Source of the DNA: Patiria miniata
Taxonomy: Eukaryota
Assembly: GCF_015706575.1 (NCBI RefSeq)
Contig: NW_024037060.1
Coordinates: forward strand, 1,073,983-1,137,982
Reading direction: 5' to 3'
Length of the DNA stretch: 64,000 nucleotides
This document shows, one piece after another, positions 673 to 62,989 of this stretch. Position 1 is the first letter of the stretch. Every line of letters starts with the position of its first letter. The notes beneath the pieces were generated by a model. It saw only the letters and a list, made by a program, of their open reading frames with translations. It did no database searches and was not told where the DNA came from. The translations under genes and the position numbers were made by a program.

Positions 673-1670
673 TGTTGTGCCCATTCTTGAAAATCACGCA
701 TTCTCGAGAATGGGCGCGCATTCTTAAGAATGAGCGCCCATTCTTAAGAACGAGCACGCGTTCTTAAGAATGAGTGCTCATTCTTAAGATTGGGTGGGAA
801 TATCACGTGCACAATTTATGAATTTTGCCCAATCTTAACAAACATTGCACGACATAATTATGTTAAATGAATTGTATAGCGGTTAAAAGGGAAACAATTC
901 ATATAAAGAGGAAAGAAAATGTTCTATGCTTCTGTACTCGTAAAACTACGATAATTTGAATCAAATTAAACCTGTTATTATTGCTTTTTTTCTGCCCACT
1001 ATGGGAAGTTTTGTAATAACGGAGGACTGGGAACTAGTCTGGGAAGTGCTTTGTTTAGGCTAAACAAGTTACAAGTCCCTGCATGTATCATATGCGTGCC
1101 ACGAAAAAAAAACGATGTCCAGAAGCTGCCAAAATTGCTCTTTTGACTAGATAGAATCCAGCTCTGCGACGTTATGGTGGGGTGTGAACAATAAATTGGT
1201 GGCAATTTAAATGGGAAATAGCATTAGCACTATGGGATGTCGCAGTATTCATTCTCATTCTTCACATTCTTCATTCTTACGTCCCCCCCCCCCCCCCCCC
1301 CCCCCCGCTTTTATTATCCCAAAAATCAGAATTCTTCGAACTAGTATTATTATGTCTCTTATTTTTTCCCGCTCCCCCCCCCCCCATATCAATACGCCTT
1401 TAGTTATCATATTCCACTCTACTTTTCAGCGCCTTGCGTTGCAACAGTATAATTATTGAGAATCAGTGAACGAGGATTCAGCTAGACTTGCCAAGCGCAG
1501 CCGGTGCTCGGCATCGACAAGACCGTTATCTTGTCGCGCATACTCAAGAATGTGCGCTCAATCTGGAAGAGTTATTTTTTGCCAAGATTGAGCAAGGATC
1601 CAGTTGCACATTCTCAAGAATGTGCATGCCCATTCTCGAGAATGCGTGATTTTCAAGAATGGGCACAACA
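673..1670. mobile_element. 998-bp non-autonomous TIR DNA transposon in the P1 upstream region (absent from P2-P4)
   Basis: Perfect terminal inverted repeats of about 43 bp (TGTTGTGCCCATTCTTGAAAATCACGCATTCTCGAGAATGGGC); subterminal palindromic CATTCTTAAGAATG repeats; 4-bp TSD AGGC (669-672 and 1671-1674); the empty site ttttttaaggcgattgtg is present in P2. Confidence 0.75.
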
Positions 1671-2149: not shown

Positions 2150-2414
2150 ATGGCAGAAACCGACGCCCTGTTGTCGTACGTATCACCCAAGGATTCACAC
2201 CCAAGCTTGACCAAATACAATACTGTCAATGGGGACAGCCTTAGTGCGGAGACCCCATCTCCTGTGACGAACAGCTTGAAGAATGAGAGGGGAAAGCCCA
2301 TGGCAGCAGAACACGTGGTGTACAAAGCAAGGTGGTTCATTCTGGCCGTCTTCTCGCTACTTTGTATGTTGCAAGCAGCAACGTGGAACACATGGGGTCC
2401 CATCGCAGACACAG
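2150..2414 (+). CDS. SLC49-family MFS transporter (DIRC2/SLC49A4-like) paralog P1, exon 1/11
   Basis: Kozak aaccATGG at 2150; GT donor at 2415-2416 (phase 1); encodes MAETDALLSYVSPKDSHPSLTKYNTVNGDSLSAETPSPVTNSLKNERGKPMAAEHVVYKARWFILAVFSLLCMLQAATWNTWGPIADT (TM1). Confidence 0.8.
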
Positions 2415-12114: not shown

Positions 12115-12420
12115 TGGCATTTGCGTATGCACGCGCTGCCGCTCCTGATCGGATGAGCTATAGTATAGAATCGATTTAAACAAAAATGAACTCGATTTGT
12201 ACTCCCAGTACCACTCCTGGAGCCGAGTACCGAGTCCAAAACCACCAACGAGTCCGCGCCAAAATAATCGAATACGGGCCGAGTCCAAATAATTTTCGAG
12301 TACTCAGAGTCGGGCCGATCGAGTGCTTGCGTGTAGTACTCGAGTTGTTCAACACTGCTAATTTTTGGCAACCGCTTGACATTGAGAAATCTTACCCCTG
12401 GACTTTTCCATTTCACGATA
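12115..12420. repeat. Unit-boundary repeat of the tandem array
   Basis: 12115-12420 matches 1-300; 43310-43620 also matches, as does 32700-32830 in part (atttgcgtatgcacgcgctg(c/t)cgctcctgatcggatgagct...cttgacattgagcaatctcacccatttaataatgggatggtccaacta). Confidence 0.7.
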
Positions 12421-15059: not shown

Positions 15060-15780
15060 TATTAAAAAAATAAAACTGCATGGCCTACATTATTTTTGTA
15101 AATGTTACTCTAAAATATTTCGGAATACATTTTGAAATTAAGTTTGAAGTCAAAGGGCTGTTGATAATCTTATTCGTATTCCTTTTAAAATTAGGAAAAA
15201 CTAAGCATAATTCGTATTAAAATTTCCCCTGGAATCTACAAAAGAATTAACTGAGGGTTCAGAACTTAATGGGCTAGGGTAGTTGAAATCGTTTTACTTT
15301 AAAAATAAATCGAGAGAACAAGACATACTAAATCGTATTAAAATAACCCCTATTTATTTGATTTCTCTCTATTTGAGGCAAAAGGGATGACGATTAATTC
15401 TTCGTGTATCTAAAAAATAAAATGCATGGCCTACATTATTTTGTGAAAATGTTTTACTCTAGAATATATTTTGGAATATATTTTGACGCTATTATTTGAG
15501 GGATGTTGTTAATCCTGATCATATTCATTTAAAAATAAGAAAAACCGAGCATAATTCGTATTAAATTTCCCCTGGAATCTACAAAAGAATTAACTTCGAG
15601 TACAAACTTTAACGAACTAGGTTTTTTTTAATCATTTTGCTTTTAAAAAAAAAGTTTTTGTAGAGAACCAGACGTAAATCTCTCTCTGAGGCCGGGAAAA
15701 TAAAAGAAGGGGAAGGCGATTTTATTCTTCATTTATTAAAAAAAACACATAGCCTACATAATTTCGTGTACCGGTACATG
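15060..15780. repeat. Roughly 355-bp tandem repeat (2 full units plus the start of a third)
   Basis: Units begin ...aaaataaaa(c)tgcatggcctacattatttt... at about 15068, 15418 and 15738 and share ...gcataattcgtattaaa(a)tttcccctggaatctacaaaagaattaact... Confidence 0.55.
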
Positions 15781-15782
15781 TT

Positions 15783-16141
15783 CTACTCAAGGGTGGATCC
15801 AGAACACAATTTTTGGGTGGGCCAAAACAAATTTTTGGTCCCCCCCCCCCAAAAAAAGTTTTGGTCCCCCCAAAAAGTGGGTCAAAAAAATTACGGCGTG
15901 GGGTTCGGGGCCCGCTTAAGGGCCCCGAAATTTTTTTGGATTCTAGATACTCTGTGGTGCGATCTGAGGCAATTTCTGACCACTTTAACCACTGTTTTAT
16001 TGAGGAAAAGATGGTGGTGTACTCATTGCCTGCCTTTATTGCGATGTCACATAAAAAAAAAAAATTGGTTTCGTTTTTTTTTGGGGGGGGGGGGGCATGG
16101 CCCCCTTTGCCCCCCCCCCCCCCCCCCCGGATCCGCCCTTG
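15783..16141. mobile_element. MITE family A copy inserted in the third unit of a roughly 355-bp tandem repeat
   Basis: CAAGGGTGGATCCAG...CCGGATCCGCCCTTG; flanks ctactc...ctactctagaatatattttggaata match the uninterrupted units at 15100 and 15460. Confidence 0.65.
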
Positions 16142-16727
16142 GCTCTACTCTAGAATATATTTTGGAATACATTTTGACATGAAGCATTAAATGCAAGTGC
16201 TGTATTAAATGTGCCCCTAGTGCAGCCGGGAAATAAAAAAGTGTCTTATAAAAATATATTCTTGCTTTGAAAGAAATTTTGAGACAATGATTGACAGGCG
16301 ACCTTCAAAACTTATACATTGTATATTTTTGTTGATAATTATGTATAATAGTTATGTTCCAAGCGATTGATTTGATGACCGCCCGTCCGCCCGCCATAAT
16401 GACTCCTCAAAAAGGAAAAAGATAGCCATGTTCTCAAAGGGATGTATTTAATGCGCGCCCGCCCTAAGATAACTCGTTAAAAAAAAAAATAAAAAAAAAC
16501 AGTTGCAAAAAGGGGGGCACGGGCCTGGTGTGCCCCCATCTGGATCCGCGCGTGGTTCAAATGCACAAAATTTCCATAAGAGGGGGTTCGTTGGTCCGAA
16601 AATGAAATAAGGTTCGTTAATCCGAACATTTGATGCAATAGTCCGAAGGTTCATTAATCCGAAGGTTCATTAGTCTGAAGGTTTATTTCTCCGAAGGTTC
16701 GATAGTCCGAATCGGTGATGTAGTGCC

Positions 16728-20583: not shown

Positions 20584-20621
<38 letters not shown>
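20584..20621. repeat. Poly-G tract (about 38 G)
   Basis: Uninterrupted G run inside the hAT-like element; similar C/G runs occur at 1289-1306 and inside MITE-A copies. Confidence 0.8.
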
Positions 20622-20680: not shown

Positions 20681-21001
20681 CAAGGGCGGATCCAGAACAC
20701 AATTTTTTGTGGGGGGGGGGCCCAAAAAAAATTTGGTCCCCCAAAAAAGTGGGTCCAAAAAATTACGGCGTGGGGTTCGGGGCCCCGAACAATTTTTGGA
20801 TTCTAGATGCTCTGTGGTGCGATCTGAGGCAATTTCTGACCACTTTAACCAATTGTTTTTGAGGAAAAGATGGTGGTGCACTCATTGCCTGCCTTTATTG
20901 CGATGTCACATAAAACAAACAAAAATTGGTTTCGGTTTTTTTTTGGGGGGGGGGGCGATGGCCCCCTTTGGCCTCCCCTCCCCCTCCTGGATCCGCCCTT
21001 G
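20681..21001. mobile_element. MITE family A copy nested inside the hAT-like element
   Basis: CAAGGGCGGATCCAG...CTGGATCCGCCCTTG. Confidence 0.65.
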
Positions 21002-23353
21002 CACTATCTATACTACAATTCAAGGAATCTCTGTCTGTCTGTCCGTCTGTCTGTCTGTCTGTCTGTCCGCCGATTATCTCCAGAACTGGGCACCGTATGA
21101 AGTTGAAAATCGGCGGGTGTATTGCTCGGGACACCAGAATGTGCAGTGCCAAATTTGAAGGGGTTTGGAAGAGCGGTTGTCGAAAAAGCTGCAAAAAAGC
21201 AGCATTTTTTGAGACTCAACGTGGCAGAGTATAGCCTAGAACTCCACGCACTACTGTTCTTTTCAATTGTTTACGTCATGTTAAAGCTAAAGCGCGCGTG
21301 CTCAATATGACGCAAACAATGCAAAAAGGACGAGCACGCGCACGTGCATTGTAGGGCGATACCATTGTCCAGTATGGGTGAATAGCACTGCGTACCATAT
21401 GTTTCCGTACGTGATGACTGCACGGGCACATGCATTTTGCAGTCGATTGAACCACTATTGTAGGCGGTGGATTGAGCAACCTTACTCACGTAGGTGAGTA
21501 GCTGCACGGGCGTATTGGTGAATATCAGTGCCGGGGATGGCCTGGCGACATGTACAAAGTGCGCTCAACCTATGAGTGTGAGTTTAACATGTGAAAACAA
21601 CACAATTGAATCGTGTGCGTTGTTTGCATGATATGAGCATTTTGAAATTGCCCCTAACGAACAGGTGCATTTTTTTGACGGGCCCTGCAAAAATGACGGG
21701 CACATTGTAGGGAGATAAGCACTGCACACTATGTCTTCGTACGTACATATACGTGAGTAGCATGCACGGGCACATGCATTTTGTACTCAAATGAGCAACC
21801 ATCACTGCACTGTATGTGCCGGGGGGGGGGGGTGACGACATTTTGTGAGTTTAACTTGCGAGTGTGCTTTCACACCATTGAATAATGTGCGTTGTTTGCA
21901 CGAGCTGCAGTTCTCAACTGCCCCTTCCGAACACGCACATTTTCGACTGGCCCTGCACTAGTATTAACTAATGCACCCTTGTCACGGCTATTTCTTCTTT
22001 AGGGGGAGACCGTTCACATGTACATCACAATCCTTCTTTTTGCTAATGCAATTTGTTTTTTTACGGAATTTATTTTGGGGGGGCTAGACAAAATTTTTTG
22101 GGGGCTACAGCTCCCCCTAGCCCCCCCGTAGAACCGCGCCTGATTCAATATTTGTTTTTTTAACACTTCACCCACAGATTCTGCTTGATTTTAATATTTT
22201 AAATTATTTAAATCTGAACACAGTTGAAATTAACTTCAATTTCAATACAAAATTGGTGGAAAATGTATTTCTCTCTTAAAAACCACCCCTTCACGAAATG
22301 TTTGAACCGTAAGTCTGCGGCGCGCTCTCTTTGGAATAATGCGCGCTACGCACTACGCGCAACGCGCACACCAGCATGCATTTGCACACAAATACCGCGC
22401 CATGGAAATAGTACTTTGGTTGCTAATGGTATAGTACTTTGGTTGCTATGCGCATAGTACTTTTGGCCGTGCACAGAAAGATAGCAAAATTAGAAAGTAA
22501 CACGTGACTCGCTCTCGGCCAATCAAGACACAGAATCTGTGGGTGAGGTGTTATAATCCAAACAAGTACAAGTGCAGGCAGCACGTATACAGGCGCGGCT
22601 GTGTGAGTGTACGTGTACCGACGAAGTGTCAAAGTTTTCCGTCATTCAAATAGTTATACTCTTTCTGCACATTGAACTAAAATAACTGCTAAATGTGTTT
22701 TGTAACCAAAGCTTCGGCTCGTTACACCTACATGCAATTACTTGTGAAGGACGGTGGAATCGCAGGGCGGCCTCGGACTGGTTTTGTACACACTAGCTGA
22801 CTAGGCCTACGTACTGCTGCTGTTTAGCATGTTTAGATGATGTGCTATATTCTGTACGAATCTCGTGATCCGGCCATTCAACTTTTTTTAAGGCGATTGT
22901 GTAGGCCTAGGCGCAAGGCTACATGTATAGTTATTTCATCATAGTAGTACAGTGCAGTGTCCACCGGCCCCCTCTATCTTTTGGTCCTTAGGACGACTGT
23001 GCCAACATGCACGCCTAGCATGTCTGACTAAGCCTGACTTGCTATTGCGGCTTAATTTCCTTTCCTTAAATTGATCTTTGTTTTGTTCTAACCGGTTGTT
23101 TACATTTTAAAACTTTCTCCAATTCCTTCAGCTCAGTGACGTGCCATGCGTGTGTGGGTGGTAATCAGGTTATGAACTGCCCACATCTTTCAAGGGTCCT
23201 GCAAAAAGGATGTGGCAGGCTGCAGGCAGAGGCAGTCGCTATGTCTTAATTAAAGTCACCCTTGCTGCATCTGGTGCAGATACCAACAAATCCCACGCAG
23301 GTTGAGAGACCGCTAGTCACGACACTAGTTTGAATTGAACACATCAAGTAACC

Positions 23354-23591
23354 ATGGCAGAAACCGACGCCCTGTTGTTGACCAAATTCAATACTGTCAA
23401 TGGGGACCGTGACATCCTTAGTGCGGAGACCCCATCTCCTCTGACGAACAGCTTGAAGAATGAGAGGGGAAAGCCCATGGCAGAAGAACACGTGGTGTAC
23501 AAAAGAAGGTGGTTCATTCTGGCCGTCTTCTCGCTACTTTGTATGTTGCAAGCAGCAACGTGGAACACATGGGGTCCCATCTCCGACACAG
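23354..23591 (+). CDS. SLC49-family (DIRC2-like) paralog P2, exon 1/11
   Basis: aaccATGG; homolog of P1 exon 1 with an in-frame N-terminal indel (79 aa + phase-1 G); MAETDALLLTKFNTVNGDRDILSAE...WNTWGPISDT; GT donor at 23592. Confidence 0.8.
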
Positions 23592-23997
23592 GTTTGTCAC
23601 ACAATTTCACCAGTTTGTGCTGACAGGAGAGTTGTAACCAAGTCATTTTTGTCCTAGTCAAGTCAAGTCACAAGTCACATATTTTCAAGTCAAGTCAAGT
23701 CTCAAGTCATTTTTTCAAGAGTGAAGTTGTCTCAAGTCAAAAAAAGTAGCGACTTGAGTCCGACTCGAGTCCGAGTCAGTGACTCGAGTTAACAACACTG
23801 GCTGAAAGCGTTAGCAGAAAATGTCTGATCTTACCCAGTAACCGCAGAATCCTTCGTTACGGGATGTAAACATGTGTATAATCCAAAATTCCTCTCTAAC
23901 CTGTAAAAATAATTTGATTCCTTTTAATTCTAGGACCTACCTATAGATCTGGAATTATATTGTGTACATAATATCAGATTTTCGATTTACTTATAAG

Positions 23998-27069: not shown

Positions 27070-27647
27070 GTGAGTGGTGCAACAGTGTCACAAAAGTTTC
27101 ACTTCAGTAGAAAAAATTGCTCCTCGTTTAAGCTTTGGTCCCAATTGAGGATCAAGGAGGGCGCTGGGGGGGGGGGGGGGGGGGGGGGCGGGCTTAGTCC
27201 CCTTAAACTCTCCAGTAAGGTTAAAAAGTCTGGATCTTAAGCTCAGAATTTTTGTAGTTTACAGGTATATGCCTGGGTTGGTCTACCTTTCCACTCCCCA
27301 TTTTATAAAATGTACCAGTCCATTGACCTGTGTGGTTAGATTAGGTGGGTGATAAGGCATACAGGATCACCAGGTCAGTGCCACGCTCACGTAGCTGGTC
27401 ACACAGGGTGAAAGTTTTCCATATGGTGGGTGAAAAATCCTTGAAAAAATCATGCATTCAGATGCTGATCTGGATCACTTCCAAATGAAATGATTCGTAC
27501 TTGTACCAAGGACCACCCCTAAATGAGTGACGGCAGGAGTATGCCATCGAATAGTAAGACAATTCTTATTTGGCAATGCGTTTGACAAATTCCAGTCTTC
27601 ACTCTTGTTAACCATTTTATCTCTCCTTCTTTGTGTGACTTCACCAG

Positions 27648-31803: not shown

Positions 31804-33074
31804 AGAAAAGTGATTGTACTTTATTATTGTGTCAATAACTTGACATAAACCTATCGGTGTTTTTTTGTAATTGCCAGAGAAAAAAAAGGGAAATATCAAG
31901 ATTCCATTCAAGTGTGTGGACTAACAGCCATTTTTGAATCGTAGTAATAATTTAATATTTATAACATTTTTAAAACACCTTACAGTGCCTTGATACACAT
32001 TTTTCTTAATTTGTGCTTGGGAATTAAATCGATAAATCTCGAATAACAACTTCAACAGTAGCTGCATTTTCAACGCACTGTCTTAAGATTAAGAATCTTA
32101 CGATTAACCACAACGGTACTAATTAAATACTAATTAAAGTTTGCATTGTTTGCAATCAACACATAGTTTGAACGTACTAAATTCTGGGGGAAAATGATGT
32201 ATTCAATGTCTGCGTAAATATATTTTCACAAATCTTGAAAACATATTGATATCAATTAAAATTTAGGTTGCACAACACGGTTCTTGGAAGATTTAGTAAT
32301 TGTAAACACATTATAGTTACTCTCTTTAACAACTTCGATTTTGTTTTTTTTATAATAGAATTCATGTTTTCAATTAAAATAAAACCAACATTTTCTATTT
32401 TTCGACGACTGCAACCCTCCGATTTGTTTTTCTTTTTGACTTTGGGTAGCGCTCTTCTTAACGTACACAAAAAAAAATCCGGATGAATTATTGTCAATCG
32501 CAAAAAATCGAAATTTGTAAAGTAATTATTCCATAACACTACACGTCAACTTGACATATTTTCGTTTGATGTCTCATTTAAAAGTAAATAACTTTTGCAT
32601 TTCCAGGAAAAAAAGCTAGCTCGTGCTAGTCTTTTTTACCTGCCAGCATCCGGGGTGCGTTACGTGTCCGGATGGTCCGGGTATAGGCGCGTGGGACTTG
32701 ACTAAAGGCTAATCGAGTGCTTGCGTGTAGTACTATACTACTATACTCGAGTTGTACAACACTGCTAATTTTTGGCAACCACTTGACATTGAGCAATCTC
32801 ACCCATTTAATAATGGGATGGTCCAACTAGCACGGTGAACTAAAATAAACTGCTAAATGTGTTTTGTTACCAAAGCTTCGGCAAATACAATATCTTATTA
32901 TTACAATTACATGCAATTACTTGTGAAGGACGGTGGAATCGCAGGGCGGCCTCGGACTGGTTTTGTACACACGGTAGGCTTACGTACTGCTGTTTGGCAT
33001 GTTTAGATGATGTGCAGTGTACGAATCTCGTGATAATCCGGCCATTCAACTTTTTTCAAGGCGATTGTGTACAA

Positions 33075-34093
33075 GCATGTTTTATTTCTCCATGGTACAA
33101 GTATACAGTATTTCATCAACTCGGACCCACGACCAACTCGGACCAACGACCAACTCGGACCCACGACCAACTCGGACCCCAACTCGGACCCAACAATGAC
33201 TTAATCATTAGTTAAAGTTATTAATTTGAAATAGGCCTTTCATTTCATGTAATTGTTAGTTTTTTTAATTTTTTTTTTTTTTACGAATCTGTTTAACTTT
33301 TTATACTTTTTTGATTAACTTTTTTGTTCAATATGGAACCTTCGTTTTTCTTGCAGTGTATGCAATGGTGTTTATGTGTTTTTTTTTTTAAATACATGTA
33401 CATGTAGAGTTTAGAGTAGTCTTCGTTTTTATACCTTAATTATTTTATTTAATGACTTATATAATGTTTACTTATATTTATTGAATTAATAATGTCATGT
33501 TTGAAAGTGTTTATGTTTCAATGTCATACTTTTCAATTTTATTTTTCTATGAAGATCTGTTCTGAATTTATGTGGTGTTAATTAAAAAGGAAATAAATTG
33601 CTGTTAAATTGAGCAAGATGGCATGAACGATGTCAAATATGAAAATGAATAATTGGTTAAACTTTAATTTTAATTACTTTTGGTTAAAGTGCAATATGTT
33701 TCAATGGAAACAAATGATAAAAATAAATAATTAATTACACTTTTAAAAGCGCATTTCAAAATAGCATTTCAATGCGCTTACAACAACAAACTGCTGCAAG
33801 TGCAATACAGATATTTTACCTGACAACTACAATGAAAATTTATACTTACCAGTAACAGCATCACTGTATTAACAGATGATAAGTGGACAAACTGTATGAA
33901 ATTGTCGAATGATTGAAAACGCTGTCGAATGATTGTAAACGATGGGTCCGAGTTGGTCATACATGGGTCCGAGTTGGTAGTGGGTCCGAGTTGGTTGTGG
34001 GTCCGAGTTGGTGGTGGGTCCGAGTTGGTAGTGGGTCCGAGTTCGTATGGGTCCGAGTTGGCTCGGGTCCGACTTGGTTTGGGTCCGAGTTGG
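33075..34093. mobile_element. Foldback-like roughly 1-kb insertion with inverted arrays of the unit AACTCGGACCC, upstream of P3
   Basis: Left array 33115-33195 (CAACTCGGACCCACGAC x5); right inverted array 33945-34095 (GGGTCCGAGTTGGT x10). It replaces about 140 bp (aggcctaggcgcaaggct...gcctagcatgtc) that is present upstream of P1, P2 and P4. Confidence 0.65.
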
Positions 34094-34442
34094 ATCGAAA
34101 CCCTGACTAAGCCTGACTTGCTATTGCGGCTTAATTTCCTTTCCTTAAATTGATCTTTGTTTTGTTCCAGTAACCGGTTGTTTACATTTTAAAACTTTCT
34201 CCGATTCTTTCAGCTAAGTGACGTGCCATGCGTGTGGGTGGTAATCAGGTTATGAACTGCCCACCTCTTTCAAGGGTCCTGCAAAAAGGATGTGGCAGGC
34301 TGCAGGCAGAGGCAGTCGCTATGTCTTAATTAAAGTCACCCTTGCTGCATCTGGTGCAGATGTCCTGATAACCAACAAATCCCACACAGGTTGAGAGACC
34401 GCTAGTCACGACACTAGTTTGAATTGAACACATCAAGTAACC

Positions 34443-34713
34443 ATGGCAGAAACCGACGCCCTGTTGTCGTACGTAGCACCCAAGCATTCACACCCAAGCT
34501 TGACCAAATACGATACTGTCAATGGGGACCGTGACATCCTTAGTGCGGAGACCCCATCTCCTCTGACGAACAGCTTGAAGAATGAGAGGGGAAAGCCCAT
34601 GACAGGAGAACACGTGGTGTACAAAGCAAGGTGGTTCATTCTGGCCGTCTTCTCGCTACTTTGTATGTTGCAAGCAGCAGCGTCGAACGCATGGGGTCCC
34701 ATCGCAGACACAG
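34443..34713 (+). CDS. SLC49-family (DIRC2-like) paralog P3, exon 1/11
   Basis: aaccATGG; 90 aa + phase-1 G; MAETDALLSYVAPKHSHPSLTKYDTVNGDRDILSAE...RWFILAVFSLLCMLQAAASNAWGPIADT; GT at 34714. Confidence 0.8.
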
Positions 34714-35187
34714 GTTTGTCACACAATTTCACCAGTTTGTGCTGACAGGAGAGTTGTAACCAAGTCATTTTTGTCCTAGTCCAGTCAAGTCACAAGCCAT
34801 ATATTTTCAAGTCAAGTCTCAAGTCATTTTTTCCCAAGTAAAGTCAAGTCTCAAGTCAAAAAAGTAGCGACTTGAGTCCGACTCGAGTCCGAGTCAGCGA
34901 CTCGAGTTAACAACACTGGCTGACAGCGTTGGCAGAAAATGTCTGATCTAACCCAGTAACCGCAGAATCCTTCGTTACGGGATGTAAACATGTGCATAAT
35001 CCAAAATTCCTCTCTGACCCGTAAAAATAATTTGATTCCTTTTAATTCTAGGACCTACCTATAGATCTGGAATTATAATTTATATTTTGTACATAATATC
35101 AGATTTTCAATGTACATACTTATAATATAAGCTCCATTGATTGTAATGCATGATTTTAAACCTAATTCTTCATCATCTGATTTCTAG

Positions 35188-42564: not shown

Positions 42565-44378
42565 ACTAACGCAGCCATTGTTTAATATAACAACAATTTA
42601 TAACATTTTTAAACACCTTGCAAAGCAATAATGCCGTACATTTTTTTTAGTATTGTGCTGGAGAATTTCACTTTATTTATTAAGTAAACGCTTCAGATTT
42701 CAAATATGCACTTGTTATTTTTCAAGGCTGGGTTGGGGCAAGGCTTTGAAATGATAAAGCAAATAATTCTGCGCAAAAAGTACTGCATTTATTAATGTTA
42801 ATCGCGAAAAATTAATATTAACAAAGTTCATAAAGTACAAATGATACCAGTTGGTATGAATAAAACATGGCCATTTGCTTTTACTACCAAAATTTCAGCA
42901 TATTGTACGCATCAGTTCTGTATGAGTGAAGTACAAATGATACCAGTTGGTATGAATAAAACATGGCCATTGCCAGTGCTTTTACTACCAAAATTTCAGC
43001 ATATTGTACGCATCAGTTCTGTATGAGTAAATTTAAATAAACGCTTTTAATGAAAACCATTTGCTAAAATCTGATTAGTTTGCTGCACTATAAGCGTTAC
43101 TTCGTTTCATACGAATAATAAAAAGGAGTATATATTTGCTGCAGAGTTCAACTAATATATTTCAAAGCTGTGGCTTCCTTGAAGATATAAAAGCAAATAC
43201 GTTTGCGCAAAAACTACTACGTTTAAAAATGTGGATCGCGAAAAATTAATATACAAAAGTTCATAAAGTACAAATATTACATAATACCATATATCGTATG
43301 AATAAATACTGGCATTTGCGTATGCACGCGCTGTCGCTCCTGATCGGATGAGCTATAGTACAGAATCGATTTAAACAAAAATGAACTCGATTTGTACTCC
43401 CAGTAATTATATACTGGAGCCAGTACCGAGTCCAAACCAACGAGTCCGTGCCAAAATTAGCACAAAGACTCGAGTACGGGCCGAGTCCAAATAATTTTCG
43501 AGCAGTCGGGCCGATAACTTTTGTGTAGTTCTCGAGTTGTACAACACTGCAAATTTTTGGCAACAACTTGACATTGAGCAATCTCACCCATTTAATAATG
43601 GGATGGTCCAACTATTAAAGATCAAGGCAAAGCCGGCCGGTCGCGCCACAGGCTAGGCAGCGCAGCACGTACGTACAGGCGCAGCTATATGTCAAAGTTT
43701 TCCGTCATTCAATTTTAGTTACTCTTTCCGCACATTGAACTAAAATAACTGCTAAATGTGTTTGTAACCAAAGCTTCGGCAAATACAATATCTTATTACG
43801 ATTACATGCAATTACTTGTGAAGGACGGTGGAATCGCAGGGCGGCCTCGGACTGGTTTTGTGCACCGGTACTCGGTAGGCCTACGTACTGCTGTTTAGCA
43901 TGTTTAGATGATGTGCTGTATATTCTGTACGAATCTCGTGATCCGGCCATTCAACTTTTTCAAGGCGATTGTGTAGGCCCTATAGACTATTTCATCATAG
44001 TAGTACCGGTACAGTGCAGTGTCCACCGGCCCCTCTATCTTTTGGTCCTTAGGACGACTGTGCCAACATGCACGCCTAGCATGTCTGACTAAGCCCGACT
44101 TGCTTGTGGCTTAATTTCCTTTCCTTAAATTGATCTTTGTTTTGTTCTAACTGATTGATTGTTTACATTTTAAAACTTTCTCCAATTCTTTCAGCTTAGT
44201 GATGTGCCATGCGTGTGGGTGGTAATCAGGTTATGAACAGCCCAGCTCTTTCAAGGGTCCTGCAAAAAGGATGTGGCAGGCTGCAGGCAGAGGCAGTCGC
44301 TATGTCTTAATTAAAGGCACCCTTGCTGCATCTGGTGCAGATGTCCTGATAACCAACAAATACCACATAGGTTGAGAA

Positions 44379-44897: not shown

Positions 44898-45377
44898 GTT
44901 TGTCACACAATTTCACCAGTTTGTGCTGACAGGAGAGTTGTAACCAAGTCATTTTTGTCCTAGTCAAGTCAAAAGTCACAAGTCATATATTTTCAAGTCA
45001 AGTCAAGTCTCAAGTCATTTTTTCCAGAGTGAAGTCGTCTCAAGTCAAAAAAAGTAGCGACTTGAGTCCGACTCGAGTCCGAGTCAGCGACTCGAGTCAA
45101 CAACACTGGCTGACAGCGTTAGCAGAAAATGTCTGATCTAACCCAGTAACCGCAGAATCCTTCGTTACGGGATGTAAACATGTGCATAATCCAAAATTCC
45201 TCTCTAACCCGTAAAAATAATTTGATTCCTTTTAATTCTAGGACCTACCTATAGGTCTGGAATTATAATTTATATTTTGTACATAATATCAGATTTTCAG
45301 TGTACATACTTATAATAAAAGCTCCATTGATTGTAATGCATGATTTTAAACCTAATTCTTCATCATCTGATTTCTAG

Positions 45378-59378: not shown

Positions 59379-59962
59379 CTGTGTCAAACATCACAACAAA
59401 TGACTTGAAGAGCAAACAAATGTTTTGATAGCAAATTCTTATTGTTGAGGGCGTGAGTTTGAACGTTCTGAGGGAAGTTGCATTATATAAGCAAAAAAAA
59501 AAAAACCAAGCTTAAGGCCATCAACAGATGTTCCTCCGCTGGTGGCCCTCTATAATCACTGCACACGTAAATCCCAACCGAACAGCTGCGCAAACTTAAT
59601 TATCCCTCCACTCTTTTCCGCAGCATTGCACTGTACGCGGAATATGCTTAATTATGTTCCATTATAGAGTAAAGTATAGTCATCGCAAAAGGTAAAAAAA
59701 ACCCAAATTACCAGACAAATCATCAAACGAGTAGAGAGTAGGGGCGTGGGCTAAAATTTGGAGGGAGGAATTTGGAGGTAGTTCGCATCGTTTGAAGAGG
59801 GACTCAAAGGTTAAAAAAAAAGAGCTCATTTGCATTCAACGAATTCTGAGCGGGGAAAGCACAAGCCATGGAGGGGGTGGGGGGGGGGGCCGGGGGGTAC
59901 CCCCATTTCCCCCTTAATAACATCACTGCCATCAGAGAGACAAAACAATGAGGACATCTTAC

Positions 59963-60287
59963 TGGTATCAGCTATGGGACCCCACGTGTTCCAGGCAGCC
60001 GCCTGTAAGACAAAGAGAAGCGAGAAGACGGCCAGGATGTACCACCGTCTTGCATAGGCCACATAGTGCTCCTCCTGCAGATGCTCATGGTGCTTATGAT
60101 GATAACCGTCCAGACTCTGGCGAAGGCTGCAATTCTTCTCGGAGTCTCTGGGCGAGATTGGGGGAGGAGTGCAGGCGTCGTTCAGCGTGCACTCGGGCGG
60201 CCCGGCGAGGGGTGTGGTCCGAGGGAAGTCATCTTCAGCGTACGGCAGGAGCGGTCTTGTGTCGGGTTCTTTCTCAGTCCGATCCAT
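59963..60287 (-). CDS. Divergent SLC49-family (DIRC2-like) paralog P5, exon 1/11
   Basis: Minus strand; cgatATGGat Kozak (ATG = plus 60285-60287); MDRTEKEPDTRPLLPYAEDDFPRTTPLAGPPECTLNDACTPPPISPRDSEKNCSLRQSLDGYHHKHHEHLQEEHYVAYARRWYILAVFSLLFVLQAAAWNTWGPIADT; donor GT at 59962-59961. A longer N-terminus from an upstream ATG (60422) is possible but passes through a poly-T-derived FFF stretch. Confidence 0.65.
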
Positions 60288-62989
60288 ATCGAAAAAAAAA
60301 TCTGCCGAACTTAAAGAAACGGAGACGGAAAGTATGCAAAACTTGTCTAGATTTTTCCAGTCAATATTATTGACTATAGGAAAAATTGTTATGCAAATAA
60401 CTAAAACTGGAGTCAAATCCAACTAGTCAATATTTTGACTACATGTAAGTTGTTTTATTTCCTTTTAAAGTAGCAAATTAATCATTCAATTTCAGGTTTA
60501 AATTGAAGTTTATAAACACATTAATATGCATGACAACTAACTGAAGTGCCTTCCTAGATCTTACAATTGGACAGCGATAAGCAACCGGAATCGCAAAATC
60601 GCATTTTTTATTAGTAAAATTTGAAAGTTCTATATGGACCTCCATTACACTGTGATGTCCGTGTTTCCTGGTGTGAATTGTATGTCTGGTAAGACTCTGG
60701 TTCACTTCCCCTTTCAATTTAGTGCTGAATGAACATTTAAGCTATATCTGTCAAGGAAATAGTAAGCCGACACAGCTTTATGAAACTGTACTTTTTCATG
60801 CAGAGCAGAGGTATGTGTAATATCCACCATCGTGTTTACTGCATGAAGGTGCATACAAAGTTACTAACAAAAGCAACATTGTTGGTTTTCCTTTCGTGAC
60901 AGGCTTCAAAGTGTGATGGTTTGTTAGTGATGGTTTGTTAATGACGGTTTGTTCGCCATTTGTTGTAAATAGGATGCTTGCAACACATGTCTTTTATGCT
61001 GAGCTCCTCTGTAAAGCATATAAAAAAGTTAGTTTACGTGTGCGTTTTGTAACACGCGCGAACATCGCCAAAATTGACTGAAATGTGTGAAATCTAGATT
61101 GAAGCAAGCATGTTAACAGCGTCCCACAATGTGAACAAATGCCCTAAAGTAATGAGCAATCTGAATACGTTGAATACACAAGCCATTTGCCTTCCCGCAC
61201 TTGTCATATCATCAGCCGCATTACACCCAATTCACATTTAAATACAATATTAGTATAAGCGAACAAAGATTTCTCAATGTCATGAACAGGATAGCTCTTT
61301 TATCATGTGACCGCGGCCTGACTCGTGGAGAGTACACGCGCAATCGGAACTTCCTCTTCAAGGCTACTTCCTGTGTATAGGCTACGAATTATTTGCTTCA
61401 TATGTCATTTGGCGAACGATACCATCATGACGTCACTGAAGAAAGCCACATTCATTTTGAATTTATCTCATCATATCTTCTGGTTTGTGAGATATGGCAT
61501 TTTAACTTTTATAAATGGTCACATTTCTTAGTTTTCTAAAATCTGACATGACACGTTTAATATGCCTACGTTTATTGTGTACTGGAGTGTGTGCTCAAAC
61601 AGGCGCAGAAACAAAACTGGTGAAAAAGACGGCAGAAAAAAAATAATCTGAACAGAAACAAAAGGCGTTTGGGATACAAACTCGCGCTAGTTTGAATCAA
61701 ACAGATCAGTGTAATTAAAGCATAAAGTGACGCTATCTCATCTTACCTCAATTCCAAAGATAATCACGCCTTATTTCACACAGAAGGCAAACTAGAAGGA
61801 ACAAGCAGGGTCGAGTTTAGGTTTGCACATTTAAAGGCTCACACTTGATATATTCATGCACGCCTTCCCTAGCCCTGCGCGTGACTGCTTCGCGGTTTCG
61901 CACTCGTGAATATAACCCGACTGTTGAACTTTAACCACCAACAACAGACTACAAACAAATCAAACACTTATGAACAACTATGGACCATTGTGTTTCAAAG
62001 ATTGAACTAACTGTGATATAATATGTACATGCAATTCCCAGTATTTAGAGGGTATTTGACGTCGCCGGGGCGCATCAGAAAGATGGGAGTTAATAATTGG
62101 CCGAAATTGTGGAACTGTTTGTTGGGAGCTGGAGGGAAGTGCGGTCTTTTTTGAATGGTTTTATCATGACGAAATACTACACCGCGCAGCATTAAATAAC
62201 CTTAACGTCCTAGCCATTACTTTGGGATAAAGAACTGAGTACATGTACTACAGAAAACTTTCAGTGTTGTGCACGCTTAAGTGTAATATATGCTGAAGTA
62301 TTTCATACTATCGTTACTAGTACAGGTAGCTACGTGCACAACTTTTGCAAGGCGCAGTCCAATTTAAAAGCACTCCGATTCAAAATAACGGACTAAGTAC
62401 AGTTGAAAATTATCACGACTATAAATACATCGTCACCAGGCATGTTTATTTAATGTGCCAGAATTTCCAATTGACTAATACTACAAAGAAAGAGTGCTCA
62501 TCTGGCCAGTACATTTTAAAATTTATAATCACAAATTAATCGTTTTCATATTTCAAATATTATTTTTTTTCGGGAGGTCTACATATGACCATTTTTCATA
62601 TGAGAATTTTTTTCGTGACAGTATAAAGTTGCACTGCTTCAGCAACAGAAATCAAAAGAACTTGAGTAATTCCACTTCTTAATTGTAACATTTTTTTAAA
62701 TGTTCATACTGTGTTTTCAGTATTATAAACCAAGGCTTTTTTTTTTTTTTTTTTACAATATCAGCTTAAATAGAAAAGAACAACTTGTTGCACTTCTAAC
62801 TGATGTTTTAAAGTCACTTAAAACAATGATTTCACTTACCGGTCTTTTTTTGCTTTTTTTTGCATTAATTGATTTCGGACCTCAATTTAATAAAAAATAA
62901 AAACTGCCACTGTTCACACTTCGTTCACATATCTATTTGAATTTTTAGAAAAACGAAAAGAACAGATACTTCCACCATTCACTGGCATG

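Follow-up and report, generated by a model that had tools for sequence, protein, structure and literature searches.

A recent, non-coding insertion with Ginger-like ends upstream of one of several tandem transporter-like paralogs

Ginger1 and metazoan Ginger2 transposons have TGTNR termini and 4-bp target site duplications (TSDs), with terminal inverted repeats (TIRs) of 40–270 bp in Ginger1 and 50–180 bp in Ginger2 (Bao, Kapitonov & Jurka 2010, PMC2836005). The TSDs of Ginger1 are CCGG in 75% of cases and CCGT/ACGG in 24%, together 99% of 112 Hydra insertions, and the target preference of Ginger2 is the AT-rich RTATAY (PMC2836005). Non-autonomous derivatives that share the ends of the autonomous element have been reported for Ginger1-1_BF (PMC2836005), and in later papers TG...CA ends together with a TSD of 4 bp (4–5 bp in Ginger2) mark integrase-like transposons (PMC10045372, PMC10741241). 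Here we compare with these systems a 998-bp segment at positions 673–1670 of a 64,000-nucleotide stretch of DNA, analyzed as a whole and hereafter called the window. The segment is almost certainly a transposable-element insertion, and very probably a TIR DNA transposon.

The window has a G+C content of 38.8% and carries, on the plus strand, at least four tandem transporter-like paralogs with GT-AG introns, four of which are referred to here as P1 to P4. The segment is flanked by inverted repeats and lies upstream of P1, the start codon of which is at 2150–2152 (+), which leaves 479 nt between the element and the ATG. Repeat finding placed the inverted arms at 673–720 (+) and 1623–1670 (−), 48 nt with 96% complementarity, and an exact 43-mer match pairs 673–715 (+) with 1628–1670 (−), for which 100 shuffles of the sequence gave an expectation of 0 matches; measured by BLAST, the TIRs are about 63 nt long at 92%. 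The left TIR starts with 5′-TGTTG and contains an internal hairpin (679–694 with 700–715), while the right TIR ends in CAACA-3′. The element was found once in the window, where a search with its terminal 16-mer, allowing up to 2 mismatches, returned no further copy.

The junctions read ...TTTTTAAGGC/TGTTGTG...CACAACA/AGGCGATTG..., and the tetranucleotide AGGC abuts the element on both sides, at 669–672 and 1671–1674. When the element and one AGGC were excised in silico, P1 aligned without gaps to P2, P3, and P4 across AAGGCGATTGTGTA, which makes AGGC a TSD of 4 bp. The numbers would also allow 5 bp (AAGGC), provided that the two ends of the element were asymmetric; the 6-bp target context is AAGGCG. 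The same exact, footprint-free empty site AAGGCGATTGTGTA, with a single AGGC, is present in P2 (AGGC at 22891–22894, upstream of the ATG at 23354), P3 (33059–33062, upstream of the ATG at 34443), and P4 (43963–43966, upstream of the gene), and in self-BLAST the flanking sequence on both sides runs on into the paralogs that lack the element. The original prediction had described 43-bp perfect TIRs, a 4-bp TSD, empty sites preserved in the paralogs, an insertion specific to P1, and a position about 480 bp upstream of the start codon. All of these features were recovered, the specificity to P1 within the 64-kb window. The insertion is thus real and cleanly delimited, yet of an ordinary kind.

With the element removed, identity between P1 and P2, taken in 100-bp bins from about −300 to +800 relative to the site, is 96–100% throughout. 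Identity between P1 and P4 is 91–98% in most bins, with lower values at −400 to −301 (65%) and at 0 to 99 (77%), where P4 has a short deletion. By these alignments, the insertion lies within an unbroken block of very recent duplication or conversion and postdates the duplication or conversion event behind the near-identity of P1 and P2; that only P1 carries the element would be explained by its integration after that event. The insertion had been called recent, and this description holds in the sense that the event which gave P1 and P2 their identity of about 97–100% around the site came first. Consistent with such youth, the TSD is intact, the TIRs are perfect, and the C24 tract in the interior is unbroken. 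A precisely bounded, recent, and paralog-specific insertion of this kind, its ends and its empty sites both intact, can help to date the tandem duplications. The original prediction had also placed the element between distal upstream sequence and a conserved proximal promoter block, a partition that the alignments did not bear out, as P1 and P2 are 96–100% identical across the site. In self-BLAST the introns are at least as similar as the sequence upstream of the ATG, whose identity is therefore uninformative about function.

The best protein matches to P1 exons 1–2 are 50–61% identical and include a protein of the bivalve Tegillarca granosa at 56%. A Pfam search of the N-terminal fragment of P1 returned no family, and its predicted identity as an MFS-type (MFS_1) transporter comes from the homologs P0019 and P0021. 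A fifth, more divergent transporter-like paralog (...YARRWYILAVFSLLFVLQAAAWNTWGPIADTSK...) lies on the minus strand at 59826–60422; it shares about 79% DNA identity with P1 exon 1 and has no upstream similarity in common with it. The spacing of the four paralogs is uneven, since P1 and P2 are 21.2 kb apart, about twice the distances of 11.1 kb between P2 and P3 and about 10.2 kb between P3 and P4. The part of the P1 upstream region farthest from the gene (1–292) recurs with 91% identity at 12119–12397, where no gene start follows, and is found also at 32706–32829 and 43314–43600. The doubled spacing, together with the recurrence of the distal segment at 12.1 kb, suggests that a further paralog was deleted or has decayed between P1 and P2, or that additional DNA was inserted there.

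Other repeats are scattered over the locus. About 55 bp downstream of the shared target site, P3 has an unrelated insertion of about 1 kb (33114–34096) of the foldback type, the inverted ends of which are built from 17-bp tandem repeats of CAACTCGGACCCACGAC, four at the left end and eight at the right, with arms of 63 nt at 94%. At this insertion P3 is missing about 95–125 bp of upstream sequence that is kept in P1, P2, and P4. Intron 1 of P1 contains, at 2462–2602, hairpin-prone tandem repeats of the CAAGTCAAGTCA type followed by their inverted complement GACTTGAGTCCGACTCGAGTCC. The CAAGTCAAGTCA block is present in all four paralogs (also near 23656–23739, 34820–34858, and 44979–45047) and therefore predates the duplications; an old MITE is one possible origin. 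A further dispersed repeat family occurs at 15766–16182 and 20709–21158, where its spurious ORFs share LRKRWWCTHCLPLLRCHIK, and is accompanied by long G/C homopolymers (16110–16129, 20584–20621, and 27163–27192), comparable to the C24 and C13 tracts within the element upstream of P1.

The interior of that element (799–1535) is non-coding, with short ORFs of low complexity and with poly-C tracts at 1283–1306 (C24) and about 1373–1385, and apart from homopolymers it has no similarity elsewhere in the window. The element has no credible coding capacity: its longest internal ORF spans 82 amino acids and is proline-rich owing to the C24 homopolymer, and a search of the concatenated stop-free translations of the element (529 amino acids) against 5.8 billion proteins returned no match at E ≤ 10. 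A SINE-like or RNA-derived element was ruled out by the empty results of the Rfam (gathering thresholds) and tRNA (ARAGORN) scans. With TIRs, a TSD, and no coding capacity, the element resembles the descriptive class of MITEs; its 998 bp exceed the length of a typical MITE (usually <800 bp). MITEs also usually occur in high copy number, and the 64 kb contain one copy of this element.

Both ends are lined with copies of a palindromic 14-mer, CATTCTYRAGAATG. The left subterminal array (682–798) contains six copies, starting at 682, 699, 719, 739, 759, and 779 on a 20-bp register that Tandem Repeats Finder (TRF) resolved as 4.7 units of 20 bp over 697–789, and the right subterminal region (1536–1661) contains four, at 1539, 1609, 1631, and 1648. 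No exact copy of CATTCTYRAGAATG occurs outside the element in the 64 kb. The element ends are strongly self-complementary: relative to shuffled sequences, single-strand DNA folding gave z = −11.1 for the left end (673–800) and z = −5.0 for the right end, compared with z = −2.2 for an interior control. Since mirrored, phased subterminal repeats are typical of the binding sites of TIR transposons, the CATTCTYRAGAATG arrays are probably transposase-binding sites.

Taken as a whole, the locus is best read, in our judgment with somewhat more support than doubt, as a non-autonomous cut-and-paste transposon mobilized in trans, most likely by an enzyme of the Ginger group. The non-coding element would have been moved by a DDE transposase whose gene lies at another place in the host genome and which is presumably of the retroviral-integrase-like kind. 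Such an enzyme would bind the phased CATTCTYRAGAATG palindromes in both subterminal regions, cut at the TGT...ACA ends, and join these ends to a target cut with a 4-bp stagger, the repair of which would yield the AGGC duplication. Integration at this locus would have happened once, after P1 and P2 had split.

Neither related copies nor an autonomous partner were found among the metagenome and genome contigs and the 5.8 billion proteins searched, collections that do not include the host genome. The terminal 20-mer had four matches of 20–22 nt among these contigs (L001–L004), all in bacterial coding DNA, and they were rejected as element copies and attributed to chance, as none extended past 20–22 nt. 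The first 20–22 nt of the TIR coincide with a coding stretch (...NPVVPILENF...) of Bdellovibrio and Bacteroidota contigs, which by our reading is dnaN-like, and this coincidence is a false-positive trap for TIR searches. If more copies of the element do exist, they would offer a handle on a possibly still-active transposase in the host.

Among the alternatives, the one that survives best, though we consider it unlikely, is that the element is a non-autonomous member of another superfamily with 4-bp TSDs and a non-integrase DDD/DDE transposase, mainly Sola or, less likely, a Chapaev-type EnSpm. The termini of EnSpm/Chapaev elements begin with CAC, unlike the TGT of this element. The TSDs of EnSpm span 2–4 bp (PMC7165386), and Sola elements have 4-bp TSDs, “very variable terminal sequences”, and TIRs of 11–1124 bp (PMC10741241) and are known in marine invertebrates, for example in bivalves (PMC10294476). 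Sola thus resembles the element in its 4-bp TSD, its highly variable TIR length, and its occurrence in marine invertebrates, and the AGGC target, which lies outside the preferences of both Ginger groups, favors a superfamily of the Sola or EnSpm type. However, TGT...ACA (TGTNR) ends are a specific hallmark of integrase-type elements (PMC2836005) and no stated hallmark of Sola, the DDD transposase of which is unrelated to integrases; our comparison with Sola is by its published description.

It is improbable that the segment is instead the solo LTR of a Gypsy/BEL-type retrotransposon, in which integration with a 4-bp TSD was followed by LTR–LTR recombination that left one 998-bp LTR. Its 5′-TG...CA-3′ ends, beginning with TGTTG, its LTR-typical size, and its lack of coding capacity would all suit an LTR. 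The terminal inverted repeats of LTRs, however, normally measure from a few to about 20 nt, and perfect inverted ends of 43–48 nt with mirrored motif arrays over about 125 bp are atypical of LTRs. The window also holds no reverse-transcriptase or integrase remnant and no second copy in direct orientation. The TSD itself fits, the range for LTR elements being 3–6 bp and including 4 bp (PMC10045372).

A transposon origin leaves room for the proposal, which we regard as doubtful, that the element is also a candidate cis-regulatory module that shifts the expression of P1 relative to P2–P4. A dimeric transcription factor might, for example, bind its TTCN4GAA palindromes, or the cruciform-prone ends might keep upstream elements away from the core promoter. 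In keeping with this proposal, the element lies 479 nt from the ATG, displaces by 1 kb upstream sequence that is otherwise near-identical, and has six TTCN4GAA sites in 998 bp compared with 0.45 per kb window-wide. Yet the motifs are phased and mirror each other at the two ends, which makes transposase-binding sites the simpler explanation; the flanks match the introns in identity and give no hint of selection; and in P3 an unrelated insertion of 1 kb is tolerated about 55 bp from the site. The effect on the host is most likely neutral or mildly perturbing to the cis-regulation of P1. The practical value of the element is limited. The pair formed by P1 and P2 is a natural comparison of near-identical promoters with and without it.

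There is also a slim chance that the element belongs to an undescribed integrase-type lineage, with a target unlike those of Ginger1 and Ginger2, a transposase that would recognize the 20-bp-phased 14-mer, and a new regulatory input to P1 through TTCN4GAA. If so, six TTCN4GAA sites absent from P2–P4 would have been placed within 0.5–1.5 kb of the P1 ATG.

Several superfamilies were rejected on their target sites, including Kolobok, which targets TTAA rather than AGGC, and hAT/Mutator/P/Merlin, which have long TSDs. piggyBac has TTAA TSDs; its termini are 5′-CC..GG-3′ (PMC10045372), and it fits neither the AGGC nor the TGT found here. The PHIS group (PIF/Harbinger, ISL2EU, Spy, Pangu, Nuwa), with TSDs of TWA, AT, none, ANT, CWG, or TNA and TIRs that start with A or G (PMC4482050), does not fit a 4-bp AGGC TSD and a TIR that starts with T, and animal AcademX elements have a 3-bp rather than a 4-bp TSD, 4 bp being known only from a red alga (PMC7165386).

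Closer in form are the IS481EU/Banshee elements, which share with the element TGT...ACA termini, TIRs that are mostly shorter than 50 bp, and, in many of their families, a TSD of 4 bp (PMC10045372). They differ in being known only from parabasalid protists, and some of their TSDs are about 15 or about 25 bp long (PMC10045372). Their host range makes membership unlikely, because the host here is an animal, as indicated by the introns of P1 and by a bivalve protein among its nearest homologs.

In the comparison with the Ginger groups, TGTTG at both ends of the element fits TGTNR, the 4-bp TSD agrees, the length of the TIR is within the Ginger1 range of 40–270 bp, and the host is an animal. The element departs from Ginger1 in having AGGC in place of CCGG or CCGT/ACGG, although a family preference cannot be read from a single insertion, and in having no Gypsy-integrase-like transposase linked to it. 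The Ginger1 enzyme is marked by HHCC, DDE, YPYY, and GPY/F motifs together with an OTU or ULP domain; a tblastn search of the window with Ginger1 and Gypsy integrases (PMC2836005 supplement) gave nothing below E = 0.5. It resembles Ginger2/TDD in its TGTNR termini, 4-bp TSD, and long TIRs, which are borderline in length (43 bp perfect, 48 at 96%, or about 63 at 92%, compared with 50–180 bp), and differs in its target, the context of this single insertion being AAGGCG and not RTATAY. The AGGC target is mildly unusual, on the evidence of one insertion. Because the element combines TGTNR ends with a TSD of 4 bp and with TIRs no shorter than 40 bp, a mobilizing enzyme of the Ginger group is the most likely one; whether the element is itself Ginger-type (integrase-like), with an atypical target, is by these terminal features about evenly balanced. 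The original prediction had found no obvious match to a common superfamily for this combination of TIR and TSD, but the combination is the published diagnostic of Ginger1 and Ginger2 (PMC2836005). The signature, being of the published Ginger type, leaves the classification of transposons unchallenged, and we provisionally file the element as Ginger-like with an atypical target.
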